From a virus (taxonomy: Duplodnaviria > Caudoviricetes), in IMG/VR virus record IMGVR_UViG_3300023096_000006, positions 1-62,793 of that record: DNA of 62,793 nt. One strand, 5' to 3'. The translations under genes were made by a program, and so were the position numbers. Positions 174 through 6,287 of the stretch are shown piece after piece (the stretch's first letter is position 1; the number at the start of each line of letters is the position of its first letter). Under the pieces are notes generated by a model. The model worked only from the letters and a program-made list of their open reading frames with translations, was not told where the DNA came from and searched no databases.

Positions 174-282
174 AAGTCTAGTTCTAGAGCTTAGACATGC
201 CTCTTAAAGCCGGATACCCCATTCTGGGTTCCGCGCTTTGCGATGGCTGATGTCTTACTCATGCGTCTAGTGTACACCATTT

Positions 283-501
283 CTAAGTCAGTTGGTCCCT
301 GGTGTCGAGAACGATGAAAGCTCCCAGTTCGGTCAGCTTGGCTTCGTGCTGCTCTCCGTGGTGCTTGCAGTACGACAGCAACCCGTCTCTGAAGAAGTAG
401 TGCATGCTGGAGCGGTGCCCACACTGGGTACAGGCGACAAACTCATCAGGGGCTGGCACATGGACGGTTACCTCTTCCTCAGTTTCCAGCACATCATTCA
501 T
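283..501 (-). CDS. Small putative Zn-binding protein
   Basis: CTQC...CKHH motifs; preceded by the GCGATAGTA motif at 547-555. Confidence 0.65.
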   Translation of the reverse strand: MNDVLETEEEVTVHVPAPDEFVACTQCGHRSSMHYFFRDGLLSYCKHHGEQHEAKLTELGAFIVLDTRDQLT

Positions 502-723: not shown

Positions 724-1937
724 TACCGGTTCGCCACCAATTCTTGTCCACCGTGGAAAGCTCGACCGGAGTCAATCTGCACTAGCTCCACGTAGAACTG
801 TCCATCGTCTCTGTATCGAATGACTGTCACGCCCTGCTGCCAGTTCTCCCAGTAGGTGGCCTTAGAGCCGTCTAGGTGGCGTGCCCCGTGAACAGAAGGC
901 ACCATACCGTCAACTCGGCAGAGACATCCGGGGTTGACGTTCATGGTACGAATCTTGCCAGCACGGTCGAAGATGGTCTTGGACTGTACTTCAAGTCGGT
1001 GGGAGTGCCCGAAGATGGTCGAAATGTGAGGCGTCTCGTTGGCGTACTGAGAGGCCGTAGAACCCTTAGCCACACTCTTGGTACCGTGGATGACTCTGAG
1101 GTCGTCACAAATCCAGTGAGCGCCTGCTGGATAGGCGTCTGTGTAGCCAGTGTCGAACTCGTCTAGTCCGATGAGGAACGGAAGACTCATGGCGGGCCAC
1201 TCGTCCGGGTACCCTGCTCGTCGTAGACCCATAGCGCTCTTGGCGTTAGCTTCCATGAAGCTCTGCATGCGCTTGTCGTGGTTTCCCTCAATCCACTGAA
1301 TGACGCCAGACGTTCGCGCACGTGTCTCAGCGGCGAATAGGCGTCCTCGTTCTAGTGAGGGCTGGGTAGTGCGAGCAAAGCGCTCTTCCTGAGCCCAGCG
1401 GCCTTGTTCTGTGAGGTCCAGGATGTCGCCAGCGATGATGGTCTGGTCAGGATTCTCCAGGCCTACAATCTGCTGGAAGAGGTCGATAGCTGCATCATCG
1501 TGGTAGGGAATCAAGTTCCCTGCGTTGTCCATGTCGAAGCCGATTTGAGTGTCGGCACCCACCACAGCCGTCTTGAACTTCGTCGCTCGTGGGGTTGGTG
1601 TAACGGGTCGGAGCTTGTAGACGGTAGCGGGCTTCTGGATGACGGGCCACTTGGGAAGCTCCTGGCCATCAACGAAATTCTTCTTCTTGACGTTGAGTAG
1701 CTTGTTCCAGTACCCACCGTTCGGACTCGACGTAACTCCGAAGGTGAAGGTAACTTCCTCAGGGTCGGTGCCCTTCTCAGCTAGCCATGCTCGCCAGTCG
1801 TCCTCACCCCAGGCCGTAGCCATCATGAGGCCTGCGGAAAGGACCATGCCGTCAGACGTGAAGACAATCTCCTCGTCAGCCTTGACAGCGGCTTCAGCTT
1901 TCGCCTGAGCGGCTGCTAGCTTGTCACTTAGACCCAT
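723..1937 (-). CDS. Calcineurin-like metallophosphoesterase
   Basis: DTQ, GDILD, GNHD, HG and GHSH motifs; start reassigned to MGLSDKL. Confidence 0.85.
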   Translation of the reverse strand: MGLSDKLAAAQAKAEAAVKADEEIVFTSDGMVLSAGLMMATAWGEDDWRAWLAEKGTDPEEVTFTFGVTSSPNGGYWNKLLNVKKKNFVDGQELPKWPVIQKPATVYKLRPVTPTPRATKFKTAVVGADTQIGFDMDNAGNLIPYHDDAAIDLFQQIVGLENPDQTIIAGDILDLTEQGRWAQEERFARTTQPSLERGRLFAAETRARTSGVIQWIEGNHDKRMQSFMEANAKSAMGLRRAGYPDEWPAMSLPFLIGLDEFDTGYTDAYPAGAHWICDDLRVIHGTKSVAKGSTASQYANETPHISTIFGHSHRLEVQSKTIFDRAGKIRTMNVNPGCLCRVDGMVPSVHGARHLDGSKATYWENWQQGVTVIRYRDDGQFYVELVQIDSGRAFHGGQELVANR

Positions 1938-2184
1938 GAACGTCTTCTTCCTTGATGGTGCCAGCCTTGACCGCTTCACGGAAAGGGATGAACGTGGCCT
2001 TATCGAACTTAGCCCCATTGCTACGAAGGAAATTCAGGAGAGTGTAGTTTCTCCAGTTCTCGCTCCGAAGCGCGGCCCAGACAGCTTTGCGGTCAGTCTC
2101 ATCGAGCGTCTTCAACCACTTCTCGATGTTGGACTCTTTCTTGGCGGTAGCCGCCTCTTGCAACTTCTCGGCAAGTGTAGACAC
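1924..2184 (-). CDS. Hypothetical protein
   Basis: 86-aa ORF with GGAG RBS, overlapping the phosphoesterase start. Confidence 0.7.
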   Translation of the reverse strand: MSTLAEKLQEAATAKKESNIEKWLKTLDETDRKAVWAALRSENWRNYTLLNFLRSNGAKFDKATFIPFREAVKAGTIKEEDVHGSK

Positions 2185-2228
2185 GTGCGTCTCCTAAGGT
2201 TTGGCTGGTGTCGTAGTCCAGCTTACCT

Positions 2229-2257
2229 CATGTACGCCTTTAAGGTTCCATTGTCAA
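2229..2257 (-). promoter_or_regulatory. Promoter, TTGACA-17-(GCG)TACATG class
   Basis: Perfect -35 box; shares the SCGTA -10 context with other copies. Confidence 0.5.
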
Positions 2258-2258
2258 G

Positions 2259-2310
2259 CAAAAAACCCCTGGCCTTCGGCCCGATTAGGGGCCTGACCAG
2301 GGGTTTCTTT
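2259..2310 (-). terminator. Intrinsic terminator ending the tRNA operon
   Basis: AAACCCCTGG...CCAGGGGTTT stem followed by a U-tract on the minus strand. Confidence 0.8.
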
Positions 2311-2311
2311 G

Positions 2312-2385
2312 TAGCGCAGACGGGATTCGAACCCGCAGCATCACTGGGTCTGAGCCAATGTGGTCGTCCTGTTGCCTACCGCGCC
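2312..2385 (-). tRNA. tRNA-Leu(CAG), short variable arm
   Basis: GGCGCGG/CTGCGCT acceptor, CT-CAG-AC loop, GCGGG TTCGAAT CCCGT T-arm. Confidence 0.8.
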
Positions 2386-2414
2386 ATATGAAGTTGTCAC
2401 AGAGAATCCATTTG

Positions 2415-2496
2415 TAGCCCTCACGGGACTCGAACCCGCACACCACGAAGGTACTAGTTCCTAAGACTAGCGCGTCTACCATTCCGCCAAAGAGCC
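2415..2496 (-). tRNA. tRNA-Leu(TAG)
   Basis: Canonical cloverleaf, long variable arm, CTAGT CT TAG GA ACTAG. Confidence 0.92.
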
Positions 2497-2497
2497 G

Positions 2498-2571
2498 TAG
2501 CGTAGACGGGATTCGAACCCGTATTCATCTTAGTATCTCGGACTAAGTGGTCTACCGTTGCCTACTACGCT
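2498..2571 (-). tRNA. tRNA-Leu(GAG), short variable arm
   Basis: AGCGTAG/CTACGCT acceptor, CTTAGT CC-GAG-AT ACTAAG, canonical T-arm. Confidence 0.75.
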
Positions 2572-2575
2572 ATGC

Positions 2576-2722
2576 AGAGAGTAACTATTGGTCAGTGTGG
2601 TTCCTACTACTGCCGTTCTTTACTTGTCTCGGGTCCTGCGGCCTCTCGAAAGAAACCACCCGTACCATTGAGACGTTCTTTACTTGGGGTCGTATTCTCC
2701 ACACCTCCGCAAGCTACTCTCT
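2576..2722 (-). ncRNA. Putative rod-shaped ncRNA with symmetric 11x11 bubble
   Basis: Nested stems AGAGAGTAGCT/AGTTACTCTCT, GGTGTGG/CCACACT, GTCTC/GAGAC and a TTCG-capped hairpin; CAAGTAAAGAACG occurs twice. Confidence 0.55.
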
Positions 2723-2825
2723 TCCGTGCCATTGCCCTCAGCCGGGGGGAGGAGTGTGCTCGGTTTCACGGTCTGCGCGCTTACCGCTCCTATGCACCTA
2801 CTTTCGGGCCGCTAAACCCTTTGCG

Positions 2826-2897
2826 TGGGAAAACGGGGAATCGAACCCCGGACTTCTGTGCTTCAAACAGACGCTTTACCGACTAAGCTATAATCCC
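2826..2897 (-). tRNA. tRNA-Phe(GAA)
   Basis: Cloverleaf with TCTGT TT-GAA-GC ACAGA; two U-U pairs in the acceptor stem. Confidence 0.85.
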
Positions 2898-2905
2898 AAA
2901 ATCCC

Positions 2906-2994
2906 GCACAGCCTGTCAGAGCCTCAGTGCAGGTTGTCTGGCGCGTACGGGCTATTCCAGACTCGCAATGTGTCCCTGACAGGACATCCCGTGC
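2906..2994 (-). ncRNA. Putative long hairpin ncRNA between tRNA-Tyr and tRNA-Phe
   Basis: GCAC/GTGC, CCTGTCAGGG/CTCTGACAGG and GTCTGG/CCAGAC nested stems. Confidence 0.45.
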
Positions 2995-3027
2995 CACCTG
3001 TTGAAGTACAGTGTAGCCAAACTTGAG

Positions 3028-3096
3028 TCCTGTAGGAGAGAATCGAACTCTCGTGCGGTCGATTTACAGTCGAGGCCAGCGCCACGCCACTACAGG
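3028..3096 (-). tRNA. Atypical tRNA-Tyr(GTA), 69 nt
   Basis: CCTGTAG/CTACAGG acceptor with A73, TCGA CT-GTA-AA TCGA, GAGAG TTCGATT CTCTC; reduced D-arm and no long V-arm. Confidence 0.65.
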
Positions 3097-3183
3097 GTAG
3101 TTTTGCCATCCGAATATCGCATGGATGGCACCGCGCCCGGACTGGACTTACCGGGTGGAAGGTTCATGACTTCTTCCAGCTTG

Positions 3184-3255
3184 TAGTGCGTACGGGATTC
3201 GAACCCGTGCTGTCCAGCTTGAAAGGCTAGAGTACTTCCTGTATACGAACGCACC
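3184..3255 (-). tRNA. tRNA-Glu(TTC)
   Basis: Cloverleaf with CTAGC CT-TTC-AA GCTGG. Confidence 0.88.
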
Positions 3256-3256
3256 G

Positions 3257-3327
3257 TAGCCCGTAGGGGAATCGAACCCCTGCTACAAGGCTGAGAACCT
3301 TGCGACCTACCATTAATCGAACGGGCC
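3257..3327 (-). tRNA. tRNA-Glu(CTC)
   Basis: Cloverleaf with CAAGG TT-CTC-AG CCTTG. Confidence 0.88.
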
Positions 3328-3348
3328 ATAATCTTCTATTCAGTTGTG

Positions 3349-3426
3349 TGGCGTCCAAGACGAGATTTGAACTCGCGTTCTCCACCTTGACAGGGTGGCG
3401 GGGACTCCTGACTCCCCCACAAGGAC
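3349..3426 (-). tRNA. tRNA-Asp(GTC), encoded CCA
   Basis: CCACC CT-GTC-AA GGTGG, G73-CCA; two U-U pairs in the acceptor stem. Confidence 0.88.
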
Positions 3427-3491
3427 ATAGGCTGGGTTATTCTTCCTCGTAGACGAACCTGCGTTCGCACCAGCATCACTACGATGTATCG

Positions 3492-3565
3492 GGTGATAGA
3501 CGGGACTCGAACCCGCACACATCTGCTCCACAGGCAGACCATCAGCCTTTGAAAGTACTATCACC
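3492..3565 (-). tRNA. tRNA-His(GTG)
   Basis: G-1:C73, TCTGC CT-GTG-GA GCAGA, canonical T-arm, irregular D-arm. Confidence 0.8.
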
Positions 3566-3609
3566 ATAGCGGGATTCGCCCTGTGGTGCACCACCTGACG
3601 TTTCCCTCG

Positions 3610-3681
3610 TCGGAATGGGGGGAATCGAACCCCCTCCTTCTCGGTCCCAAGCCGAGCGACCTCCCACTAGCCCACATTCCG
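3610..3681 (-). tRNA. tRNA-Pro(TGG)
   Basis: CGGAATG/CATTCCG with A73, CTCGG CT-TGG-GA CCGAG. Confidence 0.88.
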
Positions 3682-3685
3682 ATGT

Positions 3686-3755
3686 CCCCGATGCTGGGTC
3701 GCTACGCCCAGGTCTTCCCTCTCCCCGAGGGTGCACTGCTCTATGCTACATCGCG
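3686..3755 (-). pseudogene. Degenerate tRNA-like element (Pro GGG-like)
   Basis: CGCGATG/CATCGGG acceptor, D-like arm, CCCTC GGGGA GAGGG, CTGGG/CCCAG arm without TTCG. Confidence 0.45.
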
Positions 3756-3762
3756 GTTTAAT

Positions 3763-3829
3763 GACGACGACGCTATACACTTACGTCCAACGGCTTTCAC
3801 CGTACGGGAATCTAACCCGTGCTTCCGTC
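3763..3829 (-). ncRNA. Circularly permuted tRNA-like RNA (YrlA-type topology)
   Basis: GACGG-AAGC-[ACGGG TTAGATT CCCGT]-[ACGGT GAAA GCCGT]-TG-[GACG N11 CGTC]-G-TCGTC. Confidence 0.6.
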
Positions 3830-3832
3830 TCG

Positions 3833-3906
3833 TCGGGATAACAGGATTCGAACCTGCGACTTCACGCTCCCAAAGCGCGCGCTCTACCAAGCTGAGCTAT
3901 ATCCCG
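3833..3906 (-). tRNA. tRNA-Pro(TGG), second copy
   Basis: Canonical cloverleaf CGGGATA/TATCCCG with TT-TGG-GA loop. Confidence 0.92.
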
Positions 3907-3928
3907 ATATGGATTCTCTGTGGAGTTA

Positions 3929-4321
3929 TCAATCTGCGTGCCTAGCTAGGTAGGCGATTGCTAGAAGCAGTCTGTCCGGGTCATCCTTGAAAAGTCCAAG
4001 CCCCATGTTACATGAGGAGCAAAGCACTTCGCGTAGCTTTCCCGTCGTGTGATTGTGGTCCCAATGACTTTTCAAGAGAGTAACACTGTCGCCGCAAAGA
4101 GCACACTTACCGTTCTGCTTGTTTAGTTGTTCTAGCTTTTCCTCGGGTGAAGAATCGTATCTCGTTCGGTAGTGATACCGTGCGTTAGACGCCTGCACCT
4201 TGTCTCGGTTCTTAGCCCGCCACTCTCGCTTGTATTCGTTGTAACACGGTACGCAGTAAGAGTAACTGGACTTGAAATCCTCAACTGGCTTCTCTTGCAA
4301 ACACTTGGCACACGTTCTCAT
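3929..4321 (-). CDS. Endonuclease VII-family HNH endonuclease
   Basis: CxxC pairs, DHNH..GKLR.VLCSSCNMGLG.FKDD signature. Confidence 0.9.
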   Translation of the reverse strand: MRTCAKCLQEKPVEDFKSSYSYCVPCYNEYKREWRAKNRDKVQASNARYHYRTRYDSSPEEKLEQLNKQNGKCALCGDSVTLLKSHWDHNHTTGKLREVLCSSCNMGLGLFKDDPDRLLLAIAYLARHAD

Positions 4322-4526
4322 GTACTAAGTCTACTAGGGAAACTAGAGAAAAAGCTCTGTGGAGTTGTAGGTACAAATAAAGCCTCAGACTTTTCGAGTC
4401 CAAGGCTTAGAGTAGAGCGAATTTGCGCACTCTAAGCCAACCTGGGGTCTTCCAGGTGTAGCTCATAGTCAAACTTGCTCATGTCTTAAACCTTACATCA
4501 TGTAAACGCCTTGTGGCGCTTACTCG

Positions 4527-4600
4527 TTACGGGGGAGGGAATCGAACCCTCAGTCGCGCAGGATATGAGCCTGGCCAGTTACCGTTACTTGCACCCCGTG
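4527..4600 (-). tRNA. tRNA-Met(CAT), initiator-like
   Basis: C1xA72 mismatch, CAGG CT-CAT-AT CCTG, GAGGG TTCGATT CCCTC. Confidence 0.75.
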
Positions 4601-4662
4601 CCATTGTTTTCAGTTGTACTCATTTTTACGTCTCAGAATCTGATTTGTCAAACTGAGTTTCG

Positions 4663-4733
4663 CACCCCGTCGAGGAATCGAACCCCGGTCTGGCGGGTTG
4701 GAGCCGCACATGTTACCACTACACCAACGAGAT
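4663..4733 (-). tRNA. tRNA-Trp(CCA)
   Basis: Cloverleaf with GCGG CT-CCA-AC CCGC and G73. Confidence 0.88.
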
Positions 4734-4746
4734 ATGTGTTGAATTA

Positions 4747-4765
4747 TCTAGTGTACACCATTTCT
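4747..4765. repeat. 19-bp direct repeat shared with 266-284
   Basis: TCTAGTGTACACCATTTCT is identical at both sites; contains TACACT on the minus strand. Confidence 0.8.
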
Positions 4766-4773
4766 GATGTCCG

Positions 4774-4848
4774 TGCCCTAGGTGGGAATCGAACCCACAA
4801 ACCCCAAGGTTTGAGCTTGGTCCATATACCGAATTCTGGTACTAGGGC
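4774..4848 (-). tRNA. tRNA-Leu(CAA), short variable arm
   Basis: GCCCTAG/CTAGGGC with A73, CCAAG CT-CAA-AC CTTGG, 5-nt variable loop. Confidence 0.85.
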
Positions 4849-4977
4849 AAAAAGGCCAGCCTTCGTCCCTGCGAAAGCTACCAACCAAGAAAGGAGCTTG
4901 AAGGCTGGCCATGAGAGTGGTTGTAAAAGGAACACCAGATAGGTGGACCACTCTCAGTCTGTGAAGTTGTTAGTTAC

Positions 4978-5007
4978 ATCATACGCCCTAAGTGGCGAAA
5001 GTGTCAA
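4978..5007 (-). promoter_or_regulatory. SigA-like promoter of the tRNA operon
   Basis: TTGACA-18-TATGAT followed by boxA-like ACAACTTCACA. Confidence 0.75.
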
Positions 5008-5170
5008 GCAATTCTTGATTCTCACTCACCGTATGAGTGCAGGAAGGTCCGTTGAACCCGTGTCCACACACAATGCATTTCTTGTCTGAGACAGAGAAAT
5101 CATGTGAGCCGCGAAGGCGAACCCTCTTGGCGATTTGTGCTTGCTGTCCGCGCGAGTAATGGTTCTTCAC
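4988..5170 (-). CDS. Hypothetical protein
   Basis: 60-aa ORF with H..CxxC..C. Confidence 0.5.
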   Translation of the reverse strand: MKNHYSRGQQAQIAKRVRLRGSHDFSVSDKKCIVCGHGFNGPSCTHTVSENQELLDTFAT

Positions 5171-5186
5171 TCGTTCTTGCCAATCG

Positions 5187-5411
5187 TCATAGTCCTGTAT
5201 ACGGCTCTACTTCTGATTCGTCAAGAAACTCATCGAACGAATTGTGCGTTGTCTGCCAAACAAATGTACCCGCGTCGTGGTTAAAGATAGCCTCAACCGT
5301 GGGATTACATGGACATGTGAATTTGTGCTTGTGCTCGATAACGTCGTTCTCAGGCCACACCTCACACGTATTGTCGGAGGTCCAGTTTTGCAACCATTTG
5401 GCTTTCTGCAC
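5187..5411 (-). CDS. Hypothetical protein
   Basis: GGAGG RBS; H..CPC.P..H motif. Confidence 0.6.
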   Translation of the reverse strand: MQKAKWLQNWTSDNTCEVWPENDVIEHKHKFTCPCNPTVEAIFNHDAGTFVWQTTHNSFDEFLDESEVEPYTGL

Positions 5412-5441
5412 TACTGGACCTCCAACATGAAACGTAGGAGA

Positions 5442-6287
5442 CTAGCTTACACTGGCATCCCGACGCGTGGCGGTGTTGGCCCGCTTGTTCTTCTTACGGA
5501 AGCTGCGGAGAGTCTTCTTGCTGAAGTTCTCCTTGAGCATCGGCTGGAGAAGAACGAACTCCGCAGGCGACGTGTAGTCAGCCCAGTCCCGCATGGGGAT
5601 GTTGGCCGAATCCAACTCTTCGATGACATCCAGCATGCGGCGCTCGTTCTCGGGCATCCAATCCATGCTCTCGTTGTAGAGGTCACCCAAGTCCTGCTCC
5701 AGGTACCCGTCCGTGTAGCCTTCGTCACCACGGTCAGCGAAGAACACATTGCTGTCTTCTTCACGGAGCCCAAAGGTGTCACCGGTACGGCGCGTGGCCG
5801 TGTCGTGACGGTTGGTGTAGAAGTCAGTGTCGTCATCGTCCCACCAGTGCTTGCTGGTGTAGCCGTAGGGGTTCTTGTCCGACTTGGGACCATAGAACCC
5901 GCCAGGCGTGTTCAGACGGCACAACGTGGCCCAGATGGAGTTGAGAGCCGTGTGGTACTTGTGGTTCCAGGAGTACCGCTCCGACGTGACCTTGAACTTC
6001 TCGTAGTCGATGGCGAGAGCGGCCTGCTTGATGCCCTCAGCGTACGCCTCACGGGTCGTGTAGAACCGGTAGTTGTAGTCCATCTGAGGAGTGTCGTGGA
6101 TGGTGGGGTTGAACGAACCCGGAACCATGTACGTGTCCATGAAGTAGCGAAGGTGCTCTTCCACACGACCACGAACCTGAAGCTCGTACTCACCATTGTT
6201 CGTCCACGCAAGAACGTCGGCGTCACCGGCGACCTTGGCCGGGACAAGGGCGGGCATGAGGAGCCCGAAGTCAAAGAATGCCCACAT
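5442..6287 (-). CDS. Hypothetical phage protein
   Basis: GAAAGGA RBS before MWAFF, own promoter, strong codon bias. Confidence 0.75.
   Translation of the reverse strand: MWAFFDFGLLMPALVPAKVAGDADVLAWTNNGEYELQVRGRVEEHLRYFMDTYMVPGSFNPTIHDTPQMDYNYRFYTTREAYAEGIKQAALAIDYEKFKVTSERYSWNHKYHTALNSIWATLCRLNTPGGFYGPKSDKNPYGYTSKHWWDDDDTDFYTNRHDTATRRTGDTFGLREEDSNVFFADRGDEGYTDGYLEQDLGDLYNESMDWMPENERRMLDVIEELDSANIPMRDWADYTSPAEFVLLQPMLKENFSKKTLRSFRKKNKRANTATRRDASVS

Follow-up and report, generated by a model that had tools for sequence, protein, structure and literature searches.

A tRNA Gene Cluster with a Putative HNH Homing Endonuclease Gene in an Uncultured Relative of Microbacterium Phage Magritte

Introduction

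Do the long spacers between the transfer RNA (tRNA) genes of a phage encode small RNAs of their own? The question is raised by a block of 14 tRNA genes that ARAGORN finds on the minus strand, at 2311-4848, of the IMG/VR virus record IMGVR_UViG_3300023096_000006. This whole record of 62,793 nucleotides (nt), or 62.8 kilobases (kb), is called the window below; its completeness is estimated at ~50%. An initial annotation made from the letters of the DNA proposed that each of five long spacers folds compactly and that the flanking tRNAs act as processing signals releasing about 5-6 distinct small RNAs from one transcript, an arrangement it rated as the best candidate for an undescribed system. The comparisons reported here favor a plainer answer, to which we give a probability of roughly 65%: the region is a largely unremarkable phage tRNA cluster into which an HNH gene has been inserted, and its five spacers are mostly unconstrained, lineage-specific DNA whose transcripts would be processing by-products.

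When RNase P and the 3' processing enzymes cleave a transcript that carries several tRNAs, the spacers between them are released. The RNAC and RNAD molecules of phage T4 are cotranscribed and processed with tRNAs. These small RNAs come from the T4 tRNA region and are given as of unknown role in the passages of PMC3014915 and PMC9697503 that treat them. They are the precedent for non-tRNA RNAs among phage tRNA genes, and we found no sequence or Rfam relation between them and the window. The tRNA arrays of mycobacteria and mycobacteriophages hold transfer-messenger RNA (tmRNA), a ~430-nt structured RNA and HNH genes, the last being the most widespread coding sequences (CDS) in such arrays according to the passages on array content in Morgado and Vicente 2018 (PMC5966550). 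With the T4 RNAs (PMC3014915) and the mycobacterial arrays (PMC5966550) described to that extent, the idea of an undescribed system falls.

Results and Discussion

The Array and Its Relatives

Read 5' to 3' on the minus strand, with the spacer lengths in nt between the genes, the array is Leu(caa)-39-Trp-61-Met-619-Pro(tgg)-150-Pro(tgg)-44-His-64-Asp-21-Glu(ctc)-0-Glu(ttc)-86-Tyr-129-Phe-253-Leu(gag)-0-Leu(tag)-28-Leu(cag), followed by a terminator; the 619-nt spacer contains the HNH gene. The initial annotation had seen that Leu(tag) abuts Leu(gag) and Glu(ctc) abuts Glu(ttc), with gaps that measure 0-1 nt here, and its coordinates for the five long spacers of 253, 129, 86, 64 and 150 nt, called the named spacers here, were right (Table 1).

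The same tRNA order was found in nine other arrays, which also share the strand and the place downstream of the DNA polymerase gene. Six belong to Microbacterium phages, namely Magritte (OR553905) and a Cece group made up of Cece (OP068343), A3Wally, Pumpernickel, Zooman and Big4; three are IMG/VR records (G006, G007 and G008). The order common to the window and these relatives is Leu(caa)-Trp-(Met)-Pro-(His)-Asp-Glu(ctc)-Glu(ttc)-Tyr-Phe-Leu. In Magritte it reads Leu(caa)-Trp-(two CDS)-Pro-Asp-Glu-Glu-Tyr-Phe-Leu-Leu, and in the Cece group three Pro-His-Met-Asp-(Asp)-Glu-Glu-(Tyr)-(Tyr)-Phe-(Phe)-four Leu. The closest relative found is G006 (136.5 kb), which came from a polymerase-based scan of IMG/VR and whose DNA polymerase is 63% identical to that of the window, followed by G007 and G008. 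Magritte is the closest cultured phage, with 47% identity in the polymerase against at most 29% for the other cultured phages. The tRNA genes of the window and Cece are 67-87% identical. Short, class I-shaped Tyr and Leu genes occur both in the window and in these related clusters, and so do HNH genes embedded in arrays. The window differs from its relatives in a rearranged Leu order, two Pro(tgg) genes, an HNH gene at the Met-Pro junction and spacers of its own length and sequence; a 246-nt RNA, 57-amino-acid (aa) small open reading frames (ORFs) and promoter repeats seen in the Cece group are absent from it.

The Named Spacers Are Not Conserved

Each named spacer was compared with the nine syntenic arrays by sensitive BLAST. 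The 129-nt spacer gave nothing at E≤1 and the 64-nt spacer nothing below E 0.3, and the best match of the 253-nt spacer was 34 nt at E 0.026, over a GGGUU-UAGC-GGCCC hairpin; these three have no homologue at E<0.01 among the nine arrays. The 150-nt spacer matched only through its first ~26 nt (E 0.065 with G006). Overall no spacer is conserved whole (0/5): three of the five have no match and two share only their first 30-50 nt. Against G006, nothing was found at E<0.05 for any of the five. The same comparison recovered the leader of the array (81% over 59 nt) and the segment after tRNA-Met, the Met trailer (77.6% over 116 nt, E 8e-20), which serve as an internal positive control: since both are conserved, constrained non-tRNA sequence is detectable at the distance of G006, and the named spacers are unlike it. 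In a local BLAST set of 57 loci (414 kb) the only real matches were those of the 86-nt spacer, with Cece, and of the Met trailer. The 86-nt spacer searched alone found only Cece, at a database-wide E of 0.2. In searches of cultured phages, near and distant, the tRNAs matched and no spacer did.

The spacer lengths also vary from array to array. Between Glu(ttc) and Tyr there are 86 nt in the window, 73 in G006, 51 in G007, 19 in Magritte and 130-141 in the Cece group; between Tyr and Phe the values are 129, 387, 74 and 4, with 163 and 241 in the Cece group. From Phe to Leu we counted 253 nt in the window, 89 in G006, 171 in G007, 116 in G008, 11 in Magritte and 66-175 in the Cece group. G008 has no Tyr gene, and its entire Glu(ttc)-to-Phe gap is 557 nt. 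In Magritte the same junctions measure only 0-19 nt.

The spacers carry no credible ORF, as was claimed initially, for none of 11 spacer-derived frames matched PHROGs at E≤0.01. Searches for gene remnants with the small ORFs of the Cece group and with Magritte genes 88 and 89 gave no tblastn match in the window. The spacers lie among tRNA genes and are neither tRNA nor coding, as any spacer would be. An Rfam search of 1500-6000 (E≤1) and one of the spacers themselves (E≤10) brought up neither a credible non-tRNA family nor an additional tRNA. No non-tRNA family of Rfam 15 reached its gathering score in 1500-6000; the highest-scoring was a tmRNA model with 13.8 bits (gathering 47), on the short Tyr tRNA. 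The matches to snoTBR5, c4-a1b1, Scr1601 and sX4 seen in the spacers at E≤10 were all far below gathering and were rejected as noise. The collection of homologous spacers and the Rfam search, which the initial annotation had named among the checks on its proposal, ended with no Rfam family and no spacer conserved as a whole.

The claim that each spacer folds compactly was not confirmed either. Compared with 200 dinucleotide shuffles per spacer, the folds gave z-scores from -0.38 to -2.01, no better than the shuffles; shuffles folding at least as well numbered 23/200 for the 253-nt, 29/200 for the 129-nt, 9/200 for the 86-nt, 64/200 for the 64-nt and 6/200 for the 150-nt spacer. Six true tRNAs of the window scored between +0.20 and -2.40, and a covariation-supported RNA from related arrays scored -1.93. 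Because true tRNAs and that RNA score alike, the spacer folds neither support nor refute structure. A caution follows for other arrays: such spacers fold well by eye, yet no better than shuffles, and true tRNAs score equally. As an observation, then, the initial annotation stands in its tRNAs, spacers, lack of ORFs, promoter-like site and terminator, and is not confirmed in its compact folds.

Short Segments beside the tRNA Genes Recur

The best-conserved non-tRNA segment is the Met trailer, which consists of a CCUGG..CCAGG hairpin, a 12-base-pair (bp) terminator-like hairpin at 4408-4380 (z -4.35) and UAUUUGU. It is 67% identical over 109 nt to the leader of the Cece array, a leader present in all five Cece-group phages. 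Altogether it is kept in 7/10 arrays from two phage groups, and all seven have the CCUGG..CCAGG hairpin on the 5' side and a strong U-tailed hairpin on the 3' side. The common structure found by RNAalifold is weak, the hairpins lying in a different register in each sequence. In the Cece-group counterpart, TTGACA lies within the hairpin loop. We read the Met trailer as a putative boundary of terminator plus promoter; a small RNA or an attenuator would also be compatible with it.

The second segment is the first 50 nt of the 86-nt spacer (3182-3133), directly after Glu(ttc), which forms two small hairpins. This Glu trailer matches the Cece spacer after Glu(ctc) with 80% identity over 51 nt (E 6e-6); for comparison, an alignment of 117 nt covering both the Glu tRNA and the trailer reaches 73%. 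One of the 11 pairs in the trailer shows a compensatory change (n=2 sequences). It is absent from the other four Cece-group phages.

The 150-nt spacer opens with the third, an orphan T-arm hairpin, ACGGG-TTAGATT-CCCGT at 3820-3804, 11 nt after tRNA-Pro, and it is the only T-arm-like hairpin outside the tRNAs in the window. Orphan T-arms stand 11-19 nt after a Pro tRNA in 5/9 of the other arrays (G006, Cece, A3Wally, Zooman and Big4), with a different stem in each. The window copy resembles the tRNA-Glu(ttc) of the same array, matching its T-arm and 3' acceptor strand at 91% identity over 23 aligned nt. From the sequence, it could be either a tRNA 3'-end remnant or a selected minihelix. At the same place the G006 spacer has tRNA-like D-arm fragments, as read by eye. 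As to form, the orphan T-arms have a 5-bp stem and a TTCGAWT-type loop; in G007 and G008 such a hairpin follows Arg(acg) at a distance of 12 nt.

It is possible, if unlikely, that one or two of these segments (the ~115-nt Met trailer, the 50-nt Glu trailer or the orphan T-arm) give a stable RNA of the RNAC/RNAD kind, the remainder being filler. The retention of the Met trailer with both its hairpins, the higher identity of the Glu trailer with its one compensatory pair and the T-arm hairpin kept with six different stems are consistent with such RNAs. The Met trailer is, however, equally well explained as a plain terminator and promoter boundary and shows little common structure, the Glu trailer is common to one phage and not to its four relatives, and the orphan T-arms could be independent tRNA 3'-end remnants. 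What survives of the initial interpretation lies here and in the next section: short tRNA-adjacent pieces recur in 2/5 spacers, and relatives carry a 246-nt RNA, but a cassette of 5-6 genes does not emerge.

A Structured RNA in Related Arrays

In Cece, A3Wally, Big4 and Zooman a 246-nt spacer lies between two tRNA-Asp genes, and in Pumpernickel between Asp and Glu; it is conserved in 5/5 phages. Its fold has 72 pairs, of which 21 are changed on both sides, compared with 8.8 +/- 2.0 in shuffles (0/500 reach this number) and 0-6 in slid controls. No Rfam family matches it at E≤0.1. In the Big4 record it is entered as gene 113, a hypothetical protein of 57 aa, whose frame is broken by indels in Cece and Pumpernickel. 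The element probably represents a structured RNA that has not been described. A covariance model of it, R1, found no match in the window with default filters; with the filters off, over 2200-5100, its best match was a 14-nt hairpin (4.7 bits, E 0.15), and a homologue in the window was rejected on that ground.

Other spacers of these phages hold small ORFs of 57-67 aa, beginning MT(N/D)NKETK... and conserved at the protein level in A3Wally, Zooman and Big4 (L053:3654-3827, L055:3469-3642, L056:3429-3632). They lie between Tyr and Phe; where ARAGORN reports no Tyr gene, their place is the Glu(ttc)-Phe junction. They have no homologue in the window. In this array family the spacers are a mixture of RNA genes, small ORFs, promoters and filler.

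One may ask whether the inter-tRNA DNA as a whole is a fast-evolving reservoir of processed structured RNAs, of which the T-arm minihelix, the Glu trailer, the ~115-nt Met trailer and the 246-nt RNA would be examples. We regard this as doubtful. If it were true, the window spacers would be lineage-specific members of the reservoir, and they might tune tRNA processing or act as decoys for tRNA-binding host enzymes or defences.

Promoter-Like Sites and Terminators

The initial annotation had the array bracketed by one promoter and one terminator. Both are present: the sigma-70-like site at 5007-4978 upstream, and downstream, at 2309-2260, an intrinsic terminator with a 15-bp outer stem that, folded over 2255-2312, reaches -35.5 kcal/mol (z -5.84, 0/200 shuffles as good). 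The picture is nevertheless too simple because it missed the hairpins at 4408-4380 and 4910-4850, a second promoter-like site at 4651-4622 inside the array and the HNH ORF. A single transcript is doubtful in view of the internal terminator-like hairpins. The third and weakest site, 2919-2890 (9/12 positions), lies within the 129-nt spacer and is implausible as a promoter because its -10 hexamer runs into tRNA-Phe.

In Cece the situation is different. Promoter-like sites number 8 there, against 1.6 +/- 1.1 in shuffles; six are on the array strand, and by position they belong to the leader and the spacers. An excess of this size suggests many internal promoters in the Cece array. The sites that recur in the Cece spacers read TTGACA-N17-TAGAGT, with a palindrome between the hexamers (L052:1321-1349, 1452-1480 and others). 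By analogy the window spacers could be mainly transcription-control modules, each tRNA group forming its own unit as appears to be so in Cece, and the two hairpins, the site at 4651-4622 and a 19-nt -10-like motif at 4765-4747 would fit. We consider this quite unlikely: promoter-like sites are not enriched across the window array (3 against 2.2 +/- 1.3 in shuffles), the sole site in a named spacer is the implausible one at 2919-2890, and all the control-like elements stand in the 5' part of the array (4380-5007).

The 19-nt motif, AGAAATGGTGTACACTAGA, is an exact repeat with two copies in the window where 0.02 are expected. The tRNA-Trp gene follows 13 nt after one of them; the other (266-284, minus strand) lies 4 nt upstream of an ATG, where it resembles a -10 element before a leaderless start; the repeat may be a phage promoter motif.

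A Proposed Cassette of Small RNA Genes and Possible Hidden tRNA Genes

The proposal that every long spacer is a distinct, compact functional small RNA, five or six of them released from a single tRNA-punctuated transcript, appears very improbable to us. It agrees with the lack of ORFs, with the established release of spacers by tRNA processing and with the real 246-nt RNA between Cece-group tRNAs; the passages of PMC3014915 on RNAC and RNAD give it a precedent. Against it stand folds within chance (z -0.4 to -2.0), three of five spacers without a homologue in the nine syntenic arrays, junctions that run from the 0-19 nt of Magritte to the 557 nt of G008, the absence of conservation with G006 at a distance where other non-tRNA segments are 78-81% identical, and the internal terminator-like hairpins that oppose a single transcript.

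That the spacers hide unconventional tRNAs or tRNA-like genes missed by standard finders is hardly tenable, for although the array has one tRNA that Rfam misses (the 70-nt Tyr), spacer lengths of 86, 150 and 253 nt near one to three tRNA lengths and an orphan T-arm at 3820-3804, ARAGORN calls no array-strand tRNA within the spacers even under loosened thresholds (-ps, -ps80) or with introns permitted (-i), its tmRNA mode (-m) adds no tRNA there and yields no tmRNA, the tRNA clan of Rfam has no match inside them at E≤10, and the window has a single T-arm-like hairpin outside its tRNAs.

A tRNA Cluster with Probable By-Product Spacers

An ordinary tRNA cluster would account for the region as follows. 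The cluster was probably inherited within an actinobacteriophage family, and the block is probably transcribed from the promoter at 5007-4978 to the terminator at 2309-2260. At the conserved terminator-like hairpin that follows tRNA-Met, the block is likely divided into two units, at least in part. An HNH/endonuclease VII gene would have been inserted between tRNA-Met and tRNA-Pro in the window lineage. Host RNase P and 3' processing enzymes would cut out the tRNAs, and the spacers would be the remains of a history in which tRNA and mobile genes were gained, lost and rearranged, with their own RNA a by-product. The orphan T-arm, the Glu trailer and the Pro-His hairpin look constrained; they could be trailers or leaders with a part in processing, as aids or as marks, or else what is left of tRNA 3' ends. 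The last of them fills the 44-nt spacer between Pro and His, which is also 44 nt in Cece and 45 nt in Pumpernickel and has the common ends AAGG...TATG, with no significant sequence match.

Several points weigh against this explanation. The fold-energy test is powerless, as true tRNAs and a structured RNA score like the spacers. The closest relative is distant (63-76% amino-acid identity), so a fast-evolving functional RNA could be missed by BLAST. The orphan T-arm hairpin is kept with different stems in six arrays, which suggests selection over decay, and two of the named spacers contain recurring pieces. The 246-nt structured RNA between the tRNAs of relatives means that not every spacer in this array family is filler. 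Finally, the 253-, 129- and 64-nt spacers have no tRNA-like match even at E≤10, and hence no direct trace of decayed tRNAs. Stable spacer RNAs would be compatible with all of this.

For annotation the result is a routine one, a tRNA cluster with a homing endonuclease gene in an uncultured relative of Magritte. Should the 246-nt RNA and the orphan T-arm prove to be stable RNAs, the T4 observation of RNAC and RNAD would extend to actinophages, in testable systems.

The HNH Gene

The 130-aa product of the gene between tRNA-Met and tRNA-Pro matches PF02945 over residues 51-126 (71.4 bits against a gathering score of 23.6, E 6e-20) and phrog_2633 (E 4e-28). It resembles the free-standing HNH/endonuclease VII homing endonucleases of these families in its full-length domain match, its small size, its place between conserved blocks and the 12-nt repeat that flanks it, and we regard it as a putative homing endonuclease gene. 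The conserved blocks are the Met trailer and 33 nt upstream of tRNA-Pro. The Met-Pro junction measures 619 nt in the window and 265 nt in G006, and no HNH homologue was found at that junction in G006. Because it is absent there, the gene is taken to be a lineage-specific insertion, as judged from the comparison of the two junctions. With the HNH protein embedded in the Magritte array it shares only 32% identity over 66 aa.

Table 1: Features of the tRNA array and related elements. Coordinates are window positions unless a locus is given.
Feature	Coordinates	Strand	Evidence and remarks
Sigma-70-like promoter-like site (TTGACA, 18 nt, TATGAT), upstream of array	4978..5007	-	11/12 consensus positions
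Leader hairpin (11-nt perfect arms) then UUUUU, ending 1-5 nt before first tRNA	4849..4910	-	z -2.97; 81% over 59 nt with G006
tRNA-Leu(caa)	4773..4848	-	ARAGORN + Rfam
19-nt exact repeat in Leu-Trp spacer	4747..4765	-	2 copies vs 0.02 expected
tRNA-Trp(cca)	4662..4733	-	ARAGORN + Rfam
tRNA-Met(cat)	4526..4600	-	ARAGORN + Rfam
Met trailer	4383..4497	-	Best-conserved non-tRNA segment
12-nt direct repeat, upstream copy	4355..4366	-	Repeat search; pair 100% identical, flanks HNH cassette
HNH/Endonuclease_7 gene, free-standing, 130 aa	3929..4321	-	PF02945, phrog_2633
12-nt direct repeat, downstream copy	3916..3927	-	Overlaps 14-nt arm 3909-3922
tRNA-Pro(tgg) copy a	3832..3906	-	ARAGORN + Rfam; nearest is Cece Pro(cgg)
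150-nt spacer	3682..3831	-	z -2.01; only first ~30 nt recur, orphan T-arm
Orphan T-arm, window	3804-3820		
Orphan T-arm, G006	L076:1178-1194		
Orphan T-arm, Cece	L052:1651-1667		
Orphan T-arm, A3Wally	L053:1981-1997		
Orphan T-arm, Zooman	L055:1897-1913		
Orphan T-arm, Big4	L056:1900-1916		
tRNA-Pro(tgg) copy b	3609..3681	-	ARAGORN + Rfam
Pro-His hairpin spacer, 44 nt	3565..3608	-	z -3.01; 4/200 shuffles as good
tRNA-His(gtg)	3491..3564	-	ARAGORN + Rfam
64-nt spacer	3427..3490	-	z -0.38; no conserved feature found
tRNA-Asp(gtc)	3349..3426	-	ARAGORN + Rfam
tRNA-Glu(ctc)	3256..3327	-	ARAGORN + Rfam
tRNA-Glu(ttc)	3183..3255	-	ARAGORN + Rfam
86-nt spacer	3097..3182	-	z -1.81; first 50 nt (3182-3133) common to Cece
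tRNA-Tyr(gta), 70 nt, class I-shaped	3027..3096	-	ARAGORN; no Rfam match
129-nt spacer	2898..3026	-	z -0.96; no conserved feature found
tRNA-Phe(gaa)	2825..2897	-	ARAGORN + Rfam
253-nt spacer	2572..2824	-	z -1.31; GGGUU-UAGC-GGCCC hairpin at 2819-2806; 13-nt direct repeat
tRNA-Leu(gag)	2497..2571	-	ARAGORN + Rfam
tRNA-Leu(tag)	2414..2496	-	ARAGORN + Rfam
tRNA-Leu(cag)	2311..2385	-	ARAGORN + Rfam
Intrinsic terminator, 15-bp outer stem then UUUUUU	2260..2309	-	-35.5 kcal/mol over 2255-2312; z -5.84
246-nt spacer, Cece (outside window)	L052:2211-2456		
246-nt spacer, A3Wally (outside window)	L053:2653-2898		
246-nt spacer, Big4 (outside window)	L056:2552-2798		
246-nt spacer, Zooman (outside window)	L055:2667-2911		
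246-nt spacer, Pumpernickel (outside window)	L054:2709-2948		

The tRNA Genes and Their Neighborhood

Rfam confirms 13 of the 14 tRNAs, the exception being Tyr(gta). This 70-nt gene aligns with the short Tyr genes of Cece, A3Wally and Big4 with an invariant anticodon loop and compensatory changes in 11/22 pairs; because the loop is invariant and those pairs are kept through two-sided changes, it was accepted as a real, if odd, tRNA. The Leu(caa) gene is 87% identical to that of Cece, with 18 nt of upstream flank included. Bacterial tRNA-Leu typically has a long variable arm. Three of the four tRNA-Leu genes (2311-2385, 2497-2571 and 4773-4848) are only 75-76 nt, a length that leaves no room for such an arm. 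Short Leu(cag), Leu(caa) and Leu(gag) genes (73-78 nt) also occur in most Cece-group arrays.

An array unit in the sense of Tran 2016 and Morgado 2018 has at least 20 tRNAs at a density of at least 2 per kb, according to the definition given in PMC5966550. The window has 14 tRNAs in 2.54 kb, or 5.5 per kb, so the density is that of an array unit and the count is lower; the true count may exceed 14 because the contig ends where the G006 cluster continues. The array units of mycobacteria and of mycobacterial plasmids and phages, to the extent that PMC5966550 describes them, are similar in having dense same-strand tRNAs in actinobacterial mobile elements with embedded HNH genes; they also carry hypothetical CDS and other ncRNAs, and the window differs in having no tmRNA.

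Nearly all genes of the window are on the minus strand, among them those for the DNA polymerase, helicases, tail proteins, a 1715-aa tape measure and the major head protein. Beside the array lie a 431-aa metallophosphoesterase gene at 723-2018 (phrog_20266, E 2.5e-113) and an 86-aa ORF at 1924-2184. In G006, homologues of the two (76% and 34%, respectively) separate two tRNA blocks (L077:2865-4321), and past them the cluster resumes with Ser and many more tRNAs. Since it resumes there, the window array is probably no more than the opening block of a longer tRNA region, cut off by the end of the contig, and further tRNA genes probably lie beyond window position 1.

Attempts to find more relatives by other routes brought little. 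A search based on the phosphoesterase returned 20 IMG/VR loci at 39-53% identity, of which 18 have no tRNA, one has one and one has two; none has an array, and they were set aside. Five whole IMG/VR records from this search have 0-3 tRNAs each, and the search missed G006 (76%). No relatives were found for a neighboring 295-aa protein. Exact-pattern scans of IMG/VR, with tRNA-anchored or spacer patterns, gave no further copies, and scans of genome contigs gave 0 matches. One pattern match was a chance match in a tRNA-less stretch that looks coding, and three others were unrelated arrays with a different gene order. A metagenome scan produced 18 loci that share merely the 26-nt T-arm and acceptor end of tRNA-His, and none of them is a relative.

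Two further repeats were noticed. Within the 253-nt spacer the 13-nt exact direct repeat CAAGTAAAGAACG (minus strand, 2614-2626 and 2674-2686; two copies against 0.05 expected) bounds a 47-nt hairpin, and neither the rest of the window nor IMG/VR has another copy. A perfect 14-nt inverted repeat (2398-2411 and 3909-3922, 1.5 kb apart) brackets the block from Pro to Leu(tag), its second arm overlapping the repeat that flanks the HNH gene. A conserved processing helix formed by this pairing was rejected, as 3/6 cultured-phage arrays have no perfect inverted repeat of at least 11 nt and none has one at matching positions. Only 1/200 shuffles reached an inverted repeat of at least 14 nt, and the pair could be a long-range helix or a recombination scar.

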